From NCBI GenBank assembly GCA_963832085.1, contig CAWHSU010000003.1:22229-86228 (forward strand): 64,000 nucleotides of DNA, given 5' to 3'. The notes under the pieces were generated by a model, which saw only the letters and a program-made list of their open reading frames with translations, had not been told where the DNA came from and did no database searches. Each line of letters opens with the position of its first letter. Position 1 is the first letter of the stretch. The position numbers and the translations under genes are program-made. Of the stretch, positions 4,678 to 24,157 are shown piece by piece. Source of the stretch: an uncultured Actinomycetes bacterium. GTDB taxonomy: Bacteria; Actinomycetota; Thermoleophilia; Solirubrobacterales; 70-9.

Positions 4678-5705
4678 CGGCGGACTTCACCTGGCGCGAC
4701 GCCGGGCGCACCGTGGTCTTCCGGCGGGGCGGGGTTGGGGGTGCGGTTGAGATTCTCCGTGAGCACGGGGTCGAGAAGTTCGAGCTGCTGAGTACGGAGC
4801 GGGCGCTGGGCGACGCCGAGGGTCTGGCCGCTGCGGCCGAGCGGGTGCACGAGGTTGCCCCAGGGCAGGTTCCGCTTGCTGCCGCTGAGTTGCTGGACGC
4901 GGTTGCCCTTCCTTTTGATGGCAGGCAGGAAGGGCAACCGCGTCCGGTCGTGGCGTTTGGCGGCGGCCGGGTCGTCGATGTGGCCAAGGCGATAGCTGCG
5001 ATTTCCGGGGCGGAGGTAGTGGCGGTTCCGACGACGTTGTCGGGGGCGCCGATGACGGCCATCCACCGGCTGCCGGCCGGAGCCGAAGATCGGGTGCGGG
5101 GGATGGTCCGACCCTCTCTTGTGATCGCCGACCCGGAGGCGATGACGGGCCAAGGGGAGGCGCAGCTGCGAGCCAGCGCGATGAACGCGCTGGCGCACGG
5201 GGCGGACACGCTCTACGTGCCGGGTTCGAATCCCGTCTCGGAGATGACCGCGCTGCGAGGGGCGGAGCTGATCGCGGGCGCGCTCGACCAGGAGCGGGAG
5301 GGACGCGACCGCGCCGGGCTCGCCCTTGGCTCGCTCCTGTGCGGCTACGCGATCGACTCCGCCGGCCTTGGCCTCCACCACCTCGTCTGCCAGACCCTCG
5401 TCCGCGTCTGCGGCATCCCGCACGCGGAGACCAATGCGGCGATCTTGCCGCAGGCGATCGCGTACCTGGCCGAGCGGGCGCCGGAGTCGTATAGGCGCTT
5501 AGCGGCTGCCCTTGGCACCGATCGGCCGGGGTTGCAGGGGCGGATCGAAGAGCTGGGTCGACCGCGCCCCCTCGGCGAGCTCGGCGGTGATGCATCGAAG
5601 CTCGACGAGGCGATCGAGGCGATGCTCAAACGGCCGGAGCTTGCCTACGTTCCGGGCTCTACTTCTCGCGACGATCTGACGACGTTGGTCCAGAGCGCGT
5701 GGTAG
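4674..5705 (+). CDS. iron-containing alcohol dehydrogenase / maleylacetate reductase family protein
   Basis: This is the C-terminal 343 codons of track ORF 2496..5705. A TTG start at 4674 overlaps the upstream stop. Motifs are VVAFGGGRVVDVAKAIA, AVPTTLSGA and NALAHGADTLY. Pairing with the ring-cleaving dioxygenase fits an aromatic catabolic pair. Confidence 0.8.
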   Translation: MTADFTWRDAGRTVVFRRGGVGGAVEILREHGVEKFELLSTERALGDAEGLAAAAERVHEVAPGQVPLAAAELLDAVALPFDGRQEGQPRPVVAFGGGRVVDVAKAIAAISGAEVVAVPTTLSGAPMTAIHRLPAGAEDRVRGMVRPSLVIADPEAMTGQGEAQLRASAMNALAHGADTLYVPGSNPVSEMTALRGAELIAGALDQEREGRDRAGLALGSLLCGYAIDSAGLGLHHLVCQTLVRVCGIPHAETNAAILPQAIAYLAERAPESYRRLAAALGTDRPGLQGRIEELGRPRPLGELGGDASKLDEAIEAMLKRPELAYVPGSTSRDDLTTLVQSAW

Positions 5706-5712
5706 CGACAGA

Positions 5713-5763
5713 GCCGGTCCCCATCCACCCCTACCTGCTTAGTAGGGGTGGATGGGGACCGGC
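5713..5763. terminator. 22-bp perfect hairpin between convergent genes (bidirectional terminator candidate)
   Basis: GCCGGTCCCCATCCACCCCTAC (5713-5734), a 7-nt loop, then GTAGGGGTGGATGGGGACCGGC (5742-5763). It lies between the stop of 4674..5705 (+) and the stop of 5764..6696 (-). Confidence 0.7.
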
Positions 5764-6696
5764 TCAAGCGGCCTCGTTGTTCATCAAGAGGACCCGCAAG
5801 TCGGCCGCAACCGCCTCCGGTTCGTCGTCGAGCTGATTCCAGGTGATGTGGGTGACCGAGTAGCCCGCGACCCTCAGCTTTCGATCCCGAGCCCGGTCGT
5901 TGCGAAAGGCGGTGCGGGTGGAGTGGCCGTCCCAGCCGTCGAGCTCGACGATCTCGCGCGTATCCGGCCAGTGGCAGTCGACTTGGTAGCGCTTGCCCTC
6001 GAGGAGGATCCAGTCGTTGAAGCGCGGAAGCGGCAGGCGGTGACGACGCAGGAAGGGAGCGAAGCGCTCCTCGAGAGGGCTGCGCTTGCGACCCGGTGGC
6101 TCTTTCTTCAACCGCTCTAGCGCCATCCGAACCTTCCGCACCCCTCGTTTCCCCGGATAACGCTCGACCAGGTCCCAAAGCGAGAGGCGATCCCGGAGTT
6201 CCAGGAATTCCATCTCCCGCAGAAGGTTCTCGATTACGTCTGCGGGCTCAGTCGCCGCCAGGTCGAAGATCGTTCGCGGCACCGTGGTCACCGGGATTCC
6301 CTCCTCGACGGTGATCTCGTCAGCAGGTAAGGGCGAGTGATGTCGGCGGATCTCTGTCCAAGACCTCCCCTTCCGAGGAGTGGTGACGTCGATCCTCTCC
6401 CGCGAGTTCGGACGGATCATCCACAGCGCCGCAGCTGACCAGTGACTGAGGACGGTGTTGGGTCCGGAGGCGAGAACCGCCGCCATCCACCGCCCCTCCC
6501 TCGGGATCACGCGGTGGCCCACCGCGTAGACGCCCGCATGCAGCCGATGCAGCCGCCCTGTCCTGATCCGCCTGCCGATTGAGTCCGCTCCGAACCCCAG
6601 CTGAACCAATTGATCCCGGCCCACCACCCCGTACTGACAGTCCGCCAGCTCGCCGATCGCCCGCTCCCTTTCGCGAGACCGCAAAAGAGTGCGCAT
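5764..6696 (-). CDS. DUF559 / AbiEi-N-like protein (endonuclease-fold C-terminal domain)
   Basis: The N-terminal motif ADCQYGVVGRDQLVQLG...RRIRTGRLHRLHAGVYAV is typical of the family. The C-terminal part YQVDCHWPDTREIVELDGWDGH...RDRKLRVAGYSVTHITW is DUF559-like. The start is uncertain because the track ORF begins at 6726, inside a hairpin. Confidence 0.75.
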   Translation of the reverse strand: MRTLLRSRERERAIGELADCQYGVVGRDQLVQLGFGADSIGRRIRTGRLHRLHAGVYAVGHRVIPREGRWMAAVLASGPNTVLSHWSAAALWMIRPNSRERIDVTTPRKGRSWTEIRRHHSPLPADEITVEEGIPVTTVPRTIFDLAATEPADVIENLLREMEFLELRDRLSLWDLVERYPGKRGVRKVRMALERLKKEPPGRKRSPLEERFAPFLRRHRLPLPRFNDWILLEGKRYQVDCHWPDTREIVELDGWDGHSTRTAFRNDRARDRKLRVAGYSVTHITWNQLDDEPEAVAADLRVLLMNNEAA

Positions 6697-6719: not shown

Positions 6720-6820
6720 AGGGCACGCGCCGAGCGTGCCGGGAAACCTCGCGCGTGTGGTGCGCAGGTTGTGCCGGAAGCGATACGTAACCGTGCCCGC
6801 TTAGGCGTGTAGCGCTACGC

Positions 6821-8485
6821 GTGACCCCAGAGCGTCTTGCCTCCTACCACGCCTATACGCGCAAGCACAGCGTCAACTGGCCGCTGTACCACCTCGCCAG
6901 GGCCTTCCTGCTGCCGTTCTTCCTCGTCTACTTCCGGCTCGGCCGGATGGGACGGGAGTACGGGCGAGTCGAGGGTGGGGTGATCATCGCCTCCAACCAC
7001 CGCAGCTTCCTCGATCCCTTCGTCGCCGGCGCCTGCCTGCCCTGGCGGCGACCGATGAACTACATGGCCAAGGTCGAGCTCTTCGAGCGGCGCTGGCAGG
7101 GATGGATGCTCTCGCGGCTCGGGGCCTTCCCGGTCCGCCGCGGCGAGTCGGACGAGGAATCGATGCTGACCGCGCGGATGATCGCCGAACGCGGCGGCGC
7201 CGTCTGCGTCTTCCCCGAGGGGACGCGGATCCGCCGCGGCACCCTCGCCAACCCGAAGCGGGGGGTGGGGCGGCTCGCCCTGCAGACCGGGGCGGTGGTG
7301 ATCCCCACCGCCGTCCTCGGCACCGAAGACGTCCGCCGCGGCTGGCGCATCCGCCCGCGCAAGGTGAAGGTGCGGCTGGGGCCGCCGATGACCTTCCCCC
7401 GTGCCGAGGAGCCTTCGCCGGCGCTGGCGGAAACGGTGACCGCCCGCATCTGGCCCAACGTCCTGCTGCAGTGGGAAGACCTCGGCGGCCTGCCGCCGAT
7501 GCGCCGCGCCGCGGTGATCGGCGCCGGCAGCTGGGGGACGGCGGTGGCGGTCTTGCTCGCCCGCGGCGGGCTCGAGGTCCAGCTCGGCGCCCGCACCTCC
7601 GAGCGGGTCGAGGAGCTGATCGCCGACGGCGAGAACCGCCGCTACCTGCCCGGGGTGCCGCTGCCGGAGTCGATCGACGTCCGTCCCGCCTCGGCGATCG
7701 AGCTCGCCGGCCTCGACCTGATCTGCCTCGCCATCCCCTCCAAGCAGCTGCCGCAGGCGGTGGGAGCGATCGCCGACCGCGTCGGCTCGCGCAGCGCCGT
7801 CTTGATGCTGACCAAGGGACTGATCGCGCCGCAGGGCCAGCTGCCCTCCGACTACGTCGGCGAGCGGGTACGGGCGCGGGCGATCGCCTGCCTCGGTGGC
7901 CCCGCCCACGCCCGCGAGGCCGTCTCGGGCTCGGCGGCGCTGGTGCTGGGATCGGCCGACGAGGAGCTACGGGCGCAGATCGGCGAGGTCTTCGACCGCG
8001 CCGGCCTCGTCTGCGAGCGCTCCCGCGACGTCACCGGCGTCGAGATGGCGGGCGCCGCCAAGAACGCCGCTGCGCTGGCAGCCGCCGCTGCCGAGCCCCA
8101 TGGCCTCAACGCGGCCGGGATCGCGGTGGCGGCGATCTGGCGCGAGTGCATCGAGCACGCCGTCGCCCGCGGCGCCGAGCTCGAGACCTTCGCCGGCCTC
8201 GCCGGGGTCGGCGACCTGACCGCGACGATGATGGCCCCCACCGGCCGCAACCGTCGCGCCGGCGAGCTGCTCGGCACCGGCACCCCGGCCGCCGACATTC
8301 CCGGCAAGATCGGCCAGGCCTCCGAGGGGCTCGACACGGTGCCGCTGCTGGCGGAGGCGGTCGCCGCCTCCGGCGTCGAAGCCGAAGCGCTGGCGGCCCT
8401 GGCCGCCTTGATCCGCGGCGACCTCGACGCCGAGGAGTGGATCGCCAGCCTGCGTCAGGTCGAGCGCCAGAGGCAGGCCGCCTGA
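6821..8485 (+). CDS. fused 1-acyl-sn-glycerol-3-phosphate acyltransferase (PlsC) and NAD(P)H-dependent glycerol-3-phosphate dehydrogenase (GpsA)
   Basis: One uninterrupted 554-codon ORF. The N-terminal half carries acyltransferase motifs NHRSFLDPF (HX4D) and FPEGTR. From about codon 227, AAVIGAGSWGTAVAVLLARGG (Rossmann) is followed by GpsA-like sequence (LTKGL, GGPAHAREV-like, AGAAKN). Confidence 0.85.
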   Translation: MTPERLASYHAYTRKHSVNWPLYHLARAFLLPFFLVYFRLGRMGREYGRVEGGVIIASNHRSFLDPFVAGACLPWRRPMNYMAKVELFERRWQGWMLSRLGAFPVRRGESDEESMLTARMIAERGGAVCVFPEGTRIRRGTLANPKRGVGRLALQTGAVVIPTAVLGTEDVRRGWRIRPRKVKVRLGPPMTFPRAEEPSPALAETVTARIWPNVLLQWEDLGGLPPMRRAAVIGAGSWGTAVAVLLARGGLEVQLGARTSERVEELIADGENRRYLPGVPLPESIDVRPASAIELAGLDLICLAIPSKQLPQAVGAIADRVGSRSAVLMLTKGLIAPQGQLPSDYVGERVRARAIACLGGPAHAREAVSGSAALVLGSADEELRAQIGEVFDRAGLVCERSRDVTGVEMAGAAKNAAALAAAAAEPHGLNAAGIAVAAIWRECIEHAVARGAELETFAGLAGVGDLTATMMAPTGRNRRAGELLGTGTPAADIPGKIGQASEGLDTVPLLAEAVAASGVEAEALAALAALIRGDLDAEEWIASLRQVERQRQAA

Positions 8486-20328: not shown

Positions 20329-20604
20329 TCAGCCCCGTTCCATCTCCCGCTGGACGTCGGCCTCGGTGATCCGGTTGCTGGGCCCGTAGGCCTTCCAGGC
20401 CTGGACGACGACGGCAATGCCGACCCCGAGGATCACCCAGACCGGCCAGAAGTAGCCGCCGTCTCCCATCGCCCAGATGACGATGCAGACGAGGACGGCG
20501 AAGGCACCGCCGGCGGCCATTCCTTTGAAGTCCTGCTTCAGCTTCAGGCGCTGAATCGCGAGTTCGCGCGCCTGCTCGGGCTTGTCGATGCCTTCCTCGG
20601 CCAT
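20329..20604 (-). CDS. 2TM-domain small membrane protein
   Basis: A basic/acidic N-terminus is followed by two helices (GGAFAVLVCIVIWAM, WPVWVILGVGIAVVVQAW), as in the 2TM family. Confidence 0.65.
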   Translation of the reverse strand: MAEEGIDKPEQARELAIQRLKLKQDFKGMAAGGAFAVLVCIVIWAMGDGGYFWPVWVILGVGIAVVVQAWKAYGPSNRITEADVQREMERG

Positions 20605-20632
20605 GGCGGCATCCTAGCCGCCATGGCCGAGG
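20595..20632 (-). terminator. 16-bp perfect hairpin after the RiPP-like operon, overlapping the start codon of the 2TM gene
   Basis: CCTCGGCCATGGCGGC (20595-20610), loop ATCCTA, then GCCGCCATGGCCGAGG (20617-20632). It lies 13 nt downstream of the stop at 20645-20647. ATG 20604 sits inside the stem. Confidence 0.55.
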
Positions 20633-20644
20633 TCGTTACGCCGG

Positions 20645-21169
20645 TTAGGGGCAGATGACGATCAGGTGGAAGTCGGCGTCCTCGGGGCCGCCGTCTTTGT
20701 CTTTGGTCCGGACCTCGATCGCGTTTGGGTTGGCGGCGGAGGTGTTGGTCTGCGCGTAGCCCGAGTTCGGGACCGTGGTGCCGGCGTTGTTGCGGGCGGC
20801 GACGTTGGCGCAGGTGGAGACGTTGAACGGGAAGACGATGGTCACCGCTCCGCCGCCCTCGGTCGCCGTGATGCCGGTGCCGCTGGCGCGAGCCAGGGCG
20901 GCGTTGCCGGGGTTCGCCGGGTTGTTGACGACCGCCCAGAAGGTGTGGGTGGCGACCTTCGCGAACGGCACCGTGCCGAGCTTGTTGTTGTTGATCTGGA
21001 ACCCCGTCAGGGTGTCCTGCTTCAGCTTGCCGCCGCCGATCGTCTGCTTTTTGATCGCACCGCCGTTGATCGACTGCGCCGCGTATGCGGTTCCCGCCAG
21101 GGCGGCGACCAGTGCGATCAGCGCCACCACCATCGCCGGCGATGGGCGCCTCTTCATCAGCGTTTTCAT
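20645..21169 (-). CDS. secreted/anchored 174-aa protein, third gene of the RiPP-like operon
   Basis: An ATGA start-stop overlap links it to the upstream gene. Signal/anchor is PAMVVALIALVAALAGTAYA. The mature part is Asn/Gly/Thr-rich with two Cys (STCANV, VICP). No recognised domain. Confidence 0.65.
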   Translation of the reverse strand: MKTLMKRRPSPAMVVALIALVAALAGTAYAAQSINGGAIKKQTIGGGKLKQDTLTGFQINNNKLGTVPFAKVATHTFWAVVNNPANPGNAALARASGTGITATEGGGAVTIVFPFNVSTCANVAARNNAGTTVPNSGYAQTNTSAANPNAIEVRTKDKDGGPEDADFHLIVICP

Positions 21170-22731
21170 TCTGGATTCCCTTCCAGTCGTGGTCTTTCGT
21201 CAACCCGCCCAAGCGGCGGAAGCTGCGCCTGTCCATGGGGAGGCGCGAGTGACTCTTCGAGCAGTACCCGCTGATCGTGAAGATCAGCCTCGGAGAGGCG
21301 CCGTAGCTGCCCCTCGAGCGCTTCCAGGGGACTGGAACGAAAGCATTGGGGCTGGGCGATGCCATGGCGATCGCGAAGATCGCAGGAGTCGAGCTGCGTC
21401 CAGAAGTAGGGAACGTCTCCGCGAAGTAGATCGCCGACCTCGCTCCCGATGAGTCTTGCGCCGGGAGCTTCAAGTGACGATTGATGGGTCTCCAGGCTGG
21501 TGCGCAAAGCGTGTTCTCGCTCCTCTGTCGGAGCGGCAGTCGGCTGCAGAAGCTGGAAATACCGGACCACATAGTGCGCCGTGAAGCGAACGATGTGCCT
21601 GACTCGCAGCTCGCCGCTCCGGAGGCTGGTCTCGACCTCTCGCCGAACCCGGTCCCGCTCGCCCAGCATCACTCGGTAGCCGAGTTCGAAGCCGGCGAGC
21701 AGATCGGGGAGGAAACGGGACGGCTCGACCAGATGGCCGCTGTGGTCACTCCTGCGGTTGGCCGCGTGGAAGTAGGGCATGCGGTAGCCGACCATCTGCC
21801 GGCCCCCCTCGCGCAGGGAATGGACCGCCCAGCGCCGGCACGAGCCACCGCCTTGAAGGCCTGAGTTTGCAACGGTCGGGCTGGGCCTCTCGATCAGGCC
21901 GCTCGAGGTCACGTCGGTTGGCGAGATCACCTCGGGAAAGCGATAGAAGGCGGTCTCGAAGTCGATCGCCACTGGATGTGCCCCCACCGCCAGCACGTTT
22001 TCCATGTGCAGGTCCGTGATGTTGAGCGCGTAGGCGGCGGCGGCGAGGGCGCCGAAGCGGAAGTAAAAGCGCTCGAGCGCCCTCTTCGTATGGCTGCGCT
22101 GCGCCGTCGAGGCATAGGCGACGAAGCCGTACTCCTCGCCCAGCGGTGCGTACTTCAAGGTTGCGAAGAGAGCTTCATCCCCACGGCCGGGAGAGATCTC
22201 CGCCAGCATGGACGAGACCAAGTGATCGCTCCGCAGGTTGACCGGCTTGTAGACGACGGCCTGTTGGGATGAGAAACGAATGAGCACCGGGCGCTTGCCA
22301 TCGTTGTGGCTCTCGGACCCCAGCGCCTCGATGGCGCTGATTTCAGAGATCGCGGGAGAGCGCTGAAGCGGCAGCTGTGGGAGGTGAGAGCAGGCACGCG
22401 AGAGCGCCTCCGCCAGGTTCTTCGCCTGCCCCTCCAGGCGGCGCTCGGAAAGCTCCCTGAGCCAGGCGGTGTGGGAAGGATGGGCGATCGAGCTGGCCTG
22501 GGGGTCTTGGCCTTCCCTCCGGGCGATCCGACCGACCGCGGCCGCTACGACCGCCGTCGGAGTCATGGGTTCATCCGCTGCCTCTGCGAGTTGTTCCCGG
22601 ATCCGGCGGACCGCTGATTGGGACAGCGGCAAGGTCGAGGCTGAAACTACTTCAGCGAGGGCCGCCTCGACCCTCTGCCGGTGGGCTTGGGAAAGAGAGA
22701 CGGCGGGGTCAGCTGCAGGTGCCCGAGGCAC
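21166..22731 (-). CDS. stand-alone LanM-type dehydratase (lipid-kinase-like, DUF4135) domain protein without LanC cyclase domain
   Basis: GSESHNDGKRPVLIRFSSQQAVVYKPVNLRSDHL, ITDLHMENVLAVGAHPVAIDFETAF, RVRHIVRFTAHYVVRY and GDLLRGDVPYFWTQ all match the conserved blocks of class II lanthipeptide synthetase N-terminal domains. The ORF ends at 521 aa with no SxxxGxxG / WCxG / CHG cyclase motifs. Confidence 0.85.
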   Translation of the reverse strand: MPRAPAADPAVSLSQAHRQRVEAALAEVVSASTLPLSQSAVRRIREQLAEAADEPMTPTAVVAAAVGRIARREGQDPQASSIAHPSHTAWLRELSERRLEGQAKNLAEALSRACSHLPQLPLQRSPAISEISAIEALGSESHNDGKRPVLIRFSSQQAVVYKPVNLRSDHLVSSMLAEISPGRGDEALFATLKYAPLGEEYGFVAYASTAQRSHTKRALERFYFRFGALAAAAYALNITDLHMENVLAVGAHPVAIDFETAFYRFPEVISPTDVTSSGLIERPSPTVANSGLQGGGSCRRWAVHSLREGGRQMVGYRMPYFHAANRRSDHSGHLVEPSRFLPDLLAGFELGYRVMLGERDRVRREVETSLRSGELRVRHIVRFTAHYVVRYFQLLQPTAAPTEEREHALRTSLETHQSSLEAPGARLIGSEVGDLLRGDVPYFWTQLDSCDLRDRHGIAQPQCFRSSPLEALEGQLRRLSEADLHDQRVLLEESLAPPHGQAQLPPLGRVDERPRLEGNPE

Positions 22732-23308
22732 AGCACCTGGTGGTGTTCACGCCGTACTTCTCGATCAGCGTCGCTTCCAGGGACTTGAGGTCGAGTTCGT
22801 CCTGGCGCGAGGGGCTCTCCGTGAGCACGAGGTGGTAGGTGAATTCCGAATTCTCCAGCACGACGATCTGACGCGCTGGCGGCGAGTAGCCACGGCTCTC
22901 GAGCACCTTGCCCGGGTTGCGGATCAGCTCGGCTTTGAAATCGTCGTCGCTGAGGGAATCCGCGATCACGTCGCTCGGAAGCCAGCACTCGAGGCTGTCG
23001 TCGTCATGCATCTCCCGCGAGAGAATCTCCAGCAGGGACTCGCGCGAGAGCTGCGCCAGGTGTTTCTTGCGCGCCGGCAGCGCGAAGAATTTGATCTCCG
23101 CCGAATCGACCGCCACACAGAAGGTCTTGTTGTCAGGCCAGCGGGAAATCCGTTCCCGCAGCAAGCTGGTGGGATCGGTGAGTAGGAGCGCTCGCACCTC
23201 CGGGTCCGTCCAGGCGGCGGCCGTCACGCTTGCCGGCAGGATCGTCCAGTCCATGATCTCGGGAACCTCGAATCGGGTCTCGGTTTCGGACTGGGCCAAC
23301 TCTGGCAT
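22709..23308 (-). CDS. RiPP precursor candidate: two tandem nitrile-hydratase-like leader (NHLP) domains plus Cys/Ser/Thr-rich C-terminal core
   Basis: AAGGGA lies 7 nt upstream of ATG 23308. NHLP-like block 1 is AAAWTDPEVRALLLTDPTSLLRE...TFCVAVDSAEIKFFALPARK. Block 2 is SDDDFKAELIRNPGKVLESRGYSPPARQIVVLENSEFTYHLVLTESP. The C-terminus is LIEKYGVNTTRCCASGTCS. Confidence 0.75.
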   Translation of the reverse strand: MPELAQSETETRFEVPEIMDWTILPASVTAAAWTDPEVRALLLTDPTSLLRERISRWPDNKTFCVAVDSAEIKFFALPARKKHLAQLSRESLLEILSREMHDDDSLECWLPSDVIADSLSDDDFKAELIRNPGKVLESRGYSPPARQIVVLENSEFTYHLVLTESPSRQDELDLKSLEATLIEKYGVNTTRCCASGTCS

Positions 23309-23494
23309 TGCGCTTCCCTTCGGTTGGGAACTCGGAAGGTCCCCGCGGGGGCCATTGAAGTTCGCTGAATGTAGGAAGGCGGTCGGACGAATCGCAGCTC
23401 CGCATCCCCCTTCCCGCGTTAGATAACGCACCGAAGCCCGCCAGACAGCCGGGAACCTCGGGATTTGCGCAGAGTCCGCGTCTGAGAGTTGCCG

Positions 23495-24157
23495 CTAACT
23501 CGGCAAAGCGGAGACGAAGCGCTCGAAGGAGCCGATGTCGGTGACTGCAGGCCCGTGACCGGGCAGGATCAGGGAGGGCTCGAGCTCGGCCAGCTTGCGG
23601 ATCGAGCGCCGGTTCTCCGCCGGGTCGGGGGTGAGGTCGGCCGGGGGCTCGGCCAGCCGCGTCCGCATCGTCACGTAAGTGATGTTGCGGATCACGTCGC
23701 CGCAGAGCGCGACCCGGTCGGAGTCGCGGAAGAAGATCACCTCGCCCGGGGCGTGGCCCGGCGCGTGGACGACGCGGAAGCCGGCCACCTCGTCGCCCTC
23801 CTGAAGCACGCGGTCGACCTTGTGGGGCGGTCCCGTCCACATCTTGCCGAAGGCCTGGGCCACCGGCTTGGGGCTTGCCGCGACCGGCCGCCGCCCCTCC
23901 ATCGCGTCGACGTCGTCGGCATGGCAGGCGAGCGGAACCCCGCGCGCCTCGCAGACGGCCTTCGCGCAGCCCTGGTGGTCGGGATGGACGTGGGTGAGGG
24001 CGACCATCGAGATCTCCCGCCCCTCGAGCTCGGAGAAGATGCGGCGCTTGTCCCAGCGCCGGCCGGCGTCGATGAGAACGTCCTCGGCGAGGTAGACGTT
24101 GATCAGGGGGCGGGGTGCTTCCTTCAGCCGCCAGACGCCGGGAGCGAGGTACTTCAA
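23495..24157 (-). CDS. MBL-fold metallo-hydrolase
   Basis: ALTHVHPDHQG (HxHxDH) and later VHAPGHAPG and ILPGHGP. Confidence 0.85.
   Translation of the reverse strand: MKYLAPGVWRLKEAPRPLINVYLAEDVLIDAGRRWDKRRIFSELEGREISMVALTHVHPDHQGCAKAVCEARGVPLACHADDVDAMEGRRPVAASPKPVAQAFGKMWTGPPHKVDRVLQEGDEVAGFRVVHAPGHAPGEVIFFRDSDRVALCGDVIRNITYVTMRTRLAEPPADLTPDPAENRRSIRKLAELEPSLILPGHGPAVTDIGSFERFVSALPS

Follow-up and report, generated by a model that had tools for sequence, protein, structure and literature searches.

The question raised by this locus is what becomes of a 199-aa protein that joins two units of the NHLP type (nitrile hydratase-like leader peptide) to a very short tail rich in Cys, Ser and Thr: whether a small peptide is released from it, or whether the protein stays whole and carries a modified arm. 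The protein is encoded on the minus strand of a 64,000-nucleotide stretch of DNA from an uncultured Actinomycetes bacterium, hereafter called the window, and a previous sequence-only reading had taken it for the precursor of a (methyl)lanthionine- or dehydroamino-acid-containing peptide. The analyses suggest, at a probability of about one half, that it is a folded scaffold and that the enzyme encoded next to it dehydrates, and probably bridges by thioethers, its C-terminal arm, with the product probably kept on the protein.

The tail motif and the adjoining putative dehydratase

Direct reading of the sequence showed that the open reading frame (ORF) runs from an ATG at 23308 to a stop codon at 22711-22709, and the protein ends in ...IEKYGVNTTRCCASGTCS (the C-terminal stretch is also quoted as ...KYGVNTTRCCASGTCS). 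The ORF at 22709-23308, its 199 aa, both leader-like segments and the tail had been described correctly in the sequence-only reading, which left the strand unstated; it is the minus strand, and the plus-strand reading of the same interval gives an unrelated translation and no meaningful protein. A 240-aa version from an upstream GTG was ruled out, as the close homologues all begin with MPEL.. at 199 aa. The gene is real and no chance ORF, because the precursor has 16 close homologues of 199 aa each, about 70 cluster representatives match it over its full length (both repeats, in one stretch), and synonymous variation occurs at nearly every codon of the tail motif, including both TCN and AGC for Ser. 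Selection on the motif acts at the amino-acid level. The features of the gene pair are as follows (NHase, nitrile hydratase; AF2, AlphaFold2).

22709..23308, minus strand: gene, with its stop codon, of the 199-aa substrate protein, which has two repeats and is NHase-alpha-like (NHLP clan) (ORF list, profiles, homologues)
23313..23321, minus strand: purine-rich ribosome-binding site GAAGGGAAG, 4 nt 5' of the ATG (direct sequence reading)
23000..23251, minus strand: repeat 1, residues ~20-103, three helices, a beta hairpin and a helix (AF2, profile alignment)
22751..22987, minus strand: repeat 2, residues ~108-186, same fold as repeat 1 (TIGR03793, profile alignment, AF2)
22712..22750, minus strand: flexible C-terminal arm, residues 187-199, VNTTRCCASGTCS (predicted confidence, pLDDT, below 50; sequence)
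22715..22744, minus strand: family-defining motif T189-T-R-C192-C193-A-S195-G-T197-C198 (position table, 56 sequences)
21166..22731, minus strand: predicted cyclase-less LanM-type Ser/Thr kinase/phospholyase, DUF4135 only (PF13575, TIGR03897, CylM/LicM2 alignment)

When 1.84 billion cluster representatives were searched exhaustively with the profile, 1065 matched, about 70 of them across both repeats. The family comprises about 50 distinct 50%-identity clusters and is spread over at least Actinomycetota, Alphaproteobacteria and Nitrospirota. As counted in the sequence-only reading, the last 13 residues of the window protein hold 5 Ser/Thr and 3 Cys, and the family consensus within them is [ST]-x-x-C-C-A-[ST]-G-T-C. 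Position -3 from the first Cys, which the search pattern did not impose, is Ser or Thr in 56/56 motif-bearing sequences; the first Cys, the second Cys and the Ala are each present in 55/56, Ser or Thr stands at x4 in 53/56, and the third Cys (x7) is kept in 49/56. Three variants have Gly at x4, and none of them has the third Cys. An alphaproteobacterial homologue of 39% overall identity retains the tail as YGVNTTKCCASGTCD. This conservation of the Cys/Ser/Thr pattern exceeds that of the scaffold, so that by sequence comparison the tail is the most conserved stretch of the protein, the opposite of a typical RiPP (peptide made by the ribosome and then modified post-translationally) core, because it is near invariant, is often not C-terminal, and can be followed by up to 58 further residues.

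The enzyme encoded next to the precursor matched PF13575 with 172 bits and the LanM model TIGR03897 with 193.6 bits, below the cutoff of 304 and limited to the N-terminal part of the model. It ends after DUF4135, and neither a LanC-like Zn-dependent cyclase domain in the partner nor a LanC Pfam match among the neighbouring genes was found; the partner proteins measure 437-543 aa, compared with about 950-1000 aa for LanM. The partner was aligned to CylM and LicM2, and its residues were interpreted through the mutagenesis of CylM (PMC4550811). In the 521-aa numbering, the phosphorylation residues K274, D347, H349, N352 and D364 of CylM are kept as K162, D240, H242, N245 and D257, and the elimination residues H254, R506 and T512 as H142, R378 and T384. 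The catalytic residues are conserved in seven partners that share 19-60% identity. Given the elimination residues, which EmbM lacks, the partner appears to be equipped as a dehydratase of the PoyF type rather than as a kinase of the EmbM type.

In the public annotation, the gene begins at ATG 22566 (466 aa). The true start is most likely GTG 22731, which lies inside the Cys-Cys-Ala codons of the precursor, and the annotated start would be too late, because a conserved in-frame peptide (..VE..L.EVVSAS.LP.S..) precedes ATG 22566 and the Met encoded there is replaced by Cys or Leu in orthologues. Starting at GTG 22731, the gene overlaps the precursor by 23 nt, which implies translational coupling of the two. 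An overlap of the same kind, in another relative frame, is present at locus L007. The 142-nt "spacer" created by the annotated start was rejected as an attenuator hairpin: a z-score of only -2.0 was obtained for its fold, and its conservation is that of DUF4135 coding sequence.

The DUF4135 gene comes after the precursor on the same strand in the window, on a second contig carrying the identical protein, at L002, L007, L004 (an alphaproteobacterial metagenome-assembled genome, MAG), L005/L006, L010/L011, L012, L013 and L020, and probably on the contig of P0019. These 10 independent loci cover 28-81% precursor identity, from Actinomycetota to Alphaproteobacteria, within a co-occurrence set of about a dozen loci (7 in the narrower alignment of the metagenome scan, 2 in the genome scan). 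Three two-domain homologues without the motif (P0054, P0036 and P0056) have no DUF4135 gene nearby. The two genes also decay together. In a Solirubrobacterales MAG (L001/L003), the precursor is truncated at its N-terminus and frameshifted, and most of DUF4135 is deleted, leaving a 92-aa remnant; the flanking genes are intact, with 87-91% identity for the MBL-fold, 82-aa and 174-aa genes and 69% for the CWB2 gene. This joint decay beside intact flanks argues that precursor and DUF4135 form one functional unit from which the flanking genes are excluded. At L020, DUF4135 is cut to 207 aa (5217-5840) beside IS21, IS110 and IS66 elements, with the flanking genes again intact.

Because a short Cys/Ser/Thr tail adjoins a lanthipeptide-type dehydratase, the tail is most plausibly modified by dehydration or (methyl)lanthionine chemistry. 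The chemistry proposed in the sequence-only reading is to this extent backed by the gene next door; its picture of a peptide precursor fits less well, as the tail differs from a RiPP core. Published work provides the parts of such a mechanism. NHLP leaders are structured and attach to the dehydratase domain of LanM (PMC12537861), dehydratase domains cut out of LanM enzymes are active on their own (PMC10676384), and the cyclase-less LanM-like enzymes PoyF (a dehydratase) and EmbM (a kinase) act on RiPP precursors with long leaders, that of PoyA being NHLP and that of EmbA of the Nif11 type (PMC9505594). By analogy with the published NHLP-LanM pairs, the two repeats of a ~20-kDa folded scaffold would serve as docking element for a cytoplasmic enzyme whose only domain is that for phosphorylation and phosphate elimination, the two being supplied by translationally coupled genes. 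As the conserved active site and the gene pairing suggest, the enzyme would phosphorylate T189, S195 and/or T197 of the disordered 13-residue arm and eliminate the phosphate to give dehydroalanine or dehydrobutyrine. The cysteines may then add without a dedicated cyclase, the likely pairs being T189 with C192 and S195 with C198, both of [ST]xxC spacing, and a further ring between C193 and T197 could complete a compact thioether-bridged knot.

Several observations weigh against this proposal. The modification and its chemistry are predictions, and since there is no cyclase, thioether formation is conjecture. Many lanthipeptides give mixed products on uncatalysed cyclisation. CcaM, an unusual DUF4135 enzyme, is inactive on its own NHLP precursor until azoles have been installed, so that substrate requirements cannot be assumed. 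D252 of CylM is replaced by Glu (E140) in the window enzyme, a conservative change, and the covariation of x4 with the third Cys is based on three sequences that are possibly related. P0048, from a Nitrospiria MAG (L018/L019), carries the motif with no DUF4135 gene in the 8 kb upstream or 2.4 kb downstream of it. Finally, a GNAT acetyltransferase gene without assigned role stands between precursor and DUF4135 at five distant loci whose precursors bear export signals.

The two-repeat scaffold

The profile model of NHLP leaders (TIGR03793, leader_NHLP, NCBIfam) matched the window protein with 56.8 bits in two stretches, above the curated cutoff of 50.9, and was matched by all 62 family members. 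The Pfam model NHase_alpha (PF02979) gave 41.7 bits in three stretches (cutoff 27.2), and the halves of the precursor align with one another at 24% identity (E=0.004). The two NHLP units of the sequence-only reading were thereby borne out. Its view that known NHLP precursors carry a single such domain was not: tandem NHLP-Burk pairs fused in one polypeptide have been described from Delftia and Acidovorax, some ending in Cys-Cys (Haft et al., 2010; PMC2887384), NHase alpha itself consists of two repeats, and NHLP leaders of two or even four units, followed by ordinary GG sites and variable cores, were common in the exhaustive search (e.g., P0072-P0079), many of them being metagenomic.

The AF2 model, computed with 62 homologues, reached a pLDDT of 84.9 and a predicted TM-score (pTM) of 0.77. 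It shows two copies of a helix-helix-helix-hairpin-helix unit (HHH-ββ-H), with main elements at H26-53/E62-77/H89-100 and H112-138/E147-162/H174-185, followed by residues 187-199 with pLDDT below 50, which are thus predicted to be disordered. When the model was compared with the Protein Data Bank (PDB) using Foldseek, the top and only significant matches were 39 chains, all of them NHase alpha or thiocyanate hydrolase (SCNase) gamma, with E-values down to 2e-6 over 155-177 aligned columns. Comparison of the family profile with PDB sequences revealed that NHase alpha has two such repeats, A before and B after its CxLCSC metal claw. Repeat 1 of the window protein is closest in sequence to repeat B (NHase alpha 127-193), as also seen in the TIGR01323 alignment, where window residues 45-99 fall on model positions 124-178. 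Repeat 2 is closest to the classical NHLP leader and to repeat A (NHase alpha 55-119), and contains the best TIGR03793 stretch (window residues 113-179). It is closed by LDLKSLEATLIEKYG, in the place of the ELSDEELxxVAGG of NHLP leaders, and the tail comes next, at the very position of the core peptide in a classical NHLP precursor. The CxLCSC claw is absent from the window protein, where the linker 99-111 (EMHDDDSLECWLP) takes its place; there is no NHase beta-subunit gene near the precursor, and the equivalog model of NHase alpha (TIGR01323) gave 41.7 bits, not reaching its cutoff of 249.85. The comparison with NHase alpha suggested in the sequence-only reading hence returned the same two-repeat fold with no metal site. 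On the points by which that reading could be judged, the NHLP match proved significant, the tail conserved and the NHase metal site absent.

Related scaffolds with other tails were also observed. Three proteins (P0076, of 406 aa, P0095 and P0097) have four tandem NHLP-like units, and in P0076 a GG site and then a Gly/Tyr-rich core (..GYSSYYGYYGGYYGGYGSGYTT) form the end. In P0056 (L023 3661-4467), the two-repeat scaffold is followed by three GPGC..RFRC.PI[FW]AE repeats, a different, multi-core tail; there is no DUF4135 gene nearby, and the adjoining 121-aa and 298-aa genes are unannotated. The motif-less P0054 (Rickettsiales MAG; L015-L017, 8001-8585) and P0036 (L021/L022, 6001-6543) lie directly 3' of rpmE, encoding ribosomal protein L31, on the same strand, and this rpmE-adjoining NHase-alpha-like protein is a separate conserved placement.

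Proposed fate of the arm and gene neighbourhood

N-terminal twin-arginine translocation (Tat), general secretion (Sec) or lipoprotein signals occur in about 22 of the 56 motif-bearing sequences (~40%), a count corrected by eye, as was that of the C(x2-3)CH motifs, since the classifier was crude. Many are clear twin-arginine signals, such as MERRDFIRK.. and MQRRDFLLG.., and P0026 passed the TIGR01409 cutoff. At least five signal-bearing members have a lipobox (LSGC, ATGC, SIGC, LSSC, LLGC), and L004 has a GGAGG 6 nt ahead of the GTG with which the Tat signal opens. The DUF4135 partners have no signal peptides, so modification would have to come before export. A motif matching the c-type heme attachment pattern, C(x2-3)CH(G), stands just before or after the tail motif in 13/22 signal-bearing members, compared with 2/34 signal-less ones. 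The window protein has neither a signal peptide nor CxxCH and, without such a signal, would act in the cytoplasm. Because the loci share no conserved protease or exporter and the diderm relatives carry their signals on the whole protein, the modified arm would most likely stay on the scaffold, or be released only after export. Its role may be redox-, metal-, heme- or sulfur-interacting rather than that of a classical antibiotic.

A more specific form of this proposal, possible but tentative, is a protein-borne cofactor: the dehydro-residues or thioethers would remain in the arm, and the intact protein would be used as a redox, metal or sulfur arm, cytoplasmic in Actinomycetota and Tat-exported or lipid-anchored in diderms, often beside a c-type heme site. 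If true, such proteins would form a new class of "lanthi-proteins" and include the first Tat-exported RiPP-like substrates.

It is unlikely that the gene encodes a classical leader-cleaved, class II-like lanthipeptide, whose core of ~13 residues, once dehydrated and cyclised, would be cleaved close to the conserved [YF]-G186 to yield a small bioactive peptide. Such a product would suit an NHLP-clan leader adjoining a LanM-type dehydratase, the resemblance of LDLKSLEATLIEKYG to the ELSDEELxxVAGG end of NHLP leaders, and the presence of the same two-domain scaffold before other cores (P0056, and P0072-P0079 with GG sites); single loci even offer candidate accessory genes, namely an S8 peptidase (L002), a MacB-type ABC system (L011) and a TonB receptor (P0048). 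Across the related loci, however, no conserved protease, peptidase-containing ATP-binding transporter (PCAT, TIGR03796/03797 type) or immunity gene was found, nor was such an exporter present near the window. As stated in the sequence-only reading, no double-glycine site is visible: neither GG/GA nor a motif 2 site precedes the tail, and the matching segment ends in ..EKYG. Sequence and distance between the last helix and the motif vary among homologues, hence there is no conserved cleavage site. The tail is near invariant across phyla, unlike antibiotic cores, and is followed by up to 58 residues in some homologues. In addition, export signals stand on the "leader" of ~40% of the members, and there would be little point in lipid-anchoring a leader that is to be discarded. 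The signals on many homologues and the lack of a conserved protease or exporter therefore disfavour a simple secreted peptide cleaved from its leader, as implied by the sequence-only reading.

Less probable still is that the tail acts as an unmodified metal-, heme- or sulfur-binding arm, either a substitute for the NHase claw or a swinging arm like that of SoxY, with DUF4135 as regulatory kinase or maturation factor. The NHase alpha fold extends over the whole protein (39 top Foldseek matches), the combination of three Cys with Ser/Thr is reminiscent of the CxLCSC claw, Tat signals are a usual mark of proteins loaded with a cofactor, and the enrichment of C(x2-3)CH beside the motif in signal-bearing members would fit as well, as would the flavocytochrome c sulfide dehydrogenase and ArsR-type regulator at L012 and the TonB-dependent receptor at P0048. 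Such an arm would not account for the invariant Ser/Thr at -3 and the Thr at +6, nor for the fact that the motif tracks a dehydratase with a complete elimination site. The motif does not fit CxLCSC, the tail is predicted to be disordered and not packed in a site, and the window protein has neither signal peptide nor heme motif. A binding arm would be compatible with the retained, modified arm favoured here if the modification itself creates the binding site.

That the enzyme merely phosphorylates the Thr/Ser of the tail is improbable: although the cyclase-less, LanM-like EmbM yields the diphosphorylated phospeptin from EmbA (PMC9505594), the adjacent Thr-Thr of the window tail resembles Thr3/Thr4 of EmbA, and D252 is Glu in the window enzyme, EmbM has no elimination residues and its substrate no Cys (PMC9505594), whereas R378, T384 and H142 are conserved family-wide here and the substrate has three conserved Cys.

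The remaining features concern the neighbourhood of the gene pair and are listed below.

20645..21169, minus strand: 174-aa protein with signal peptide or anchor, ATG overlapping the DUF4135 stop by 4 nt (ORF coordinates)
L001 10389-10664 / L003 10470-10745: decayed module (decay of precursor and DUF4135)
L005 3544-3969, L010 1128-1583, L011 ~6777-7169, L012 3639-4046, L013 1335-1793: small GNAT acetyltransferase gene between precursor and DUF4135

The 174-aa gene is probably co-transcribed with DUF4135. Its protein has no match to a Pfam family, and tblastn found homologues only in the close relatives L001-L003 (86-87% identity); because it is confined to close relatives and survives the decay of the module, it probably lies outside it. 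The upstream MBL-fold hydrolase, the 82-aa and CWB2 proteins and the downstream 174-aa and two-transmembrane proteins were rejected as module parts on the same grounds, being present only in close relatives and intact where the module has decayed. At L002, the 174-aa gene is followed on the opposite strand by the S8 peptidase gene and a second MBL-fold gene, both absent from the window. The window most likely belongs to a Solirubrobacterales (Thermoleophilia) genome. At 0.635-0.66 over the 174-aa gene, DUF4135 and the precursor (window 20600-23600), the GC content is about 5-7% lower than in the flanks (0.69-0.73), which fits horizontal acquisition of the module. Sigma-70-like promoters and an excess of terminators were looked for in this sequence, and none were found.

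The GNAT gene is absent in the window, L002, L007 and L004. The Lys before Cys-Cys was rejected as a GNAT target, since Gln stands there in the GNAT-containing L010 and L011. No YcaO or cyclodehydratase gene was found in any locus. At L012, the genes immediately upstream of the module (1216-2989) are those of flavocytochrome c sulfide dehydrogenase, encoding a cytochrome c subunit and a flavoprotein with a Tat signal, and the ArsR-type regulator gene is downstream (5650-5967); a link to sulfur metabolism is possible from this single observation, and the MacB-type ABC system at L011 is likewise a single observation. P0048 is flanked (L018 9178-11215 and 5018-7843) by genes for an unannotated 941-aa lipoprotein and, downstream, the TonB-dependent receptor; the 941-aa neighbour was rejected as a divergent LanM, as it has a lipoprotein signal and no similarity to DUF4135.

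Comparison with known systems

Each component of the module is known: the NHLP clan, the dehydratase domain of LanM and, as precedents for an enzyme without cyclase, PoyF and EmbM. Their combination (two repeats, an invariant motif, no cleavage site, no cyclase, a two-gene operon and export of the whole protein in many lineages) appears to be undescribed: neither NCBIfam nor Pfam holds a curated model specific for the clade, its members are named "hypothetical protein" in the source records, and no description was found in the literature searched on the motif, Tat-exported NHLP-leader RiPPs and DUF4135. The undescribed architecture claimed in the sequence-only reading thus holds for the combination within these libraries and publications, whereas the doubling of the leader had already been published.

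If the partner modifies the tail, the module would be a widespread minimal two-gene system that applies lanthipeptide chemistry to an invariant motif of an exportable folded protein. It would make the distinction between RiPP natural products and post-translational cofactors of proteins less sharp, offer a simple test case for cyclase-independent thioether formation, and raise the issue of the role in the envelope of a scaffold like NHase alpha that carries a Cys/thioether arm, often near a heme site. For genome mining, NHLP-clan matches with conserved tails and signal peptides should not automatically be taken as antibiotic precursors.

The family shares with the classical NHLP precursors and proteusins (TIGR03793, PoyA/PoyF) a structured leader derived from NHase alpha without the claw, a tail placed after an A-type repeat, and, as in the PoyF system, a partner that can be a LanM dehydratase domain without cyclase. 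Unlike these precursors, it has two repeats per chain, no GG/GA site and, where their core is variable or long, an invariant motif of 10 residues; it has no radical SAM epimerase, methyltransferase or protease, and homologues carry export signals. In the NHLP-Burk proteins (TIGR03795; PF27793; BMA_0021/0022), two units can likewise be fused, with no motif-2/GG site and a very short suffix. Their partner, in contrast, is a fusion for docking to the cyclodehydratase of thiazole/oxazole-modified microcins (TOMM) in place of DUF4135, and the motif differs; the NHLP-Burk model gave 20.3 bits with the window protein, not reaching its cutoff of 41, and this cutoff was apparently reached by 0/62 family members (best E-value 1e-8).

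With the LanM enzymes (CylM, LicM2, ProcM), the partner shares the kinase/phospholyase domain and a Ser/Thr plus Cys substrate, but it lacks the Zn-dependent LanC-like cyclase domain and stays below the TIGR03897 cutoff. The phospeptin pair EmbA/EmbM is similarly a minimal two-gene system of a long-leader precursor and a cyclase-less LanM-like enzyme; it differs in the Nif11 leader with a GG site and no Cys of EmbA, and in the missing elimination residues of EmbM. Bufferins resemble the family in being protein-like RiPP metallophores that bear signal peptides, are modified at Cys and are exported rather than leader-cleaved; they differ in their MNIO/DUF692 enzyme, their fold, their thiooxazoles and their Sec signals, where many members here have Tat signals. 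The overall two-repeat fold, with sequence similarity in both repeats, is that of NHase alpha and thiocyanate hydrolase gamma, from which the family is set apart by the permuted order of the repeats in sequence (repeat 1 resembling B and repeat 2 resembling A), the loss of the claw between them and the lack of a beta gene.

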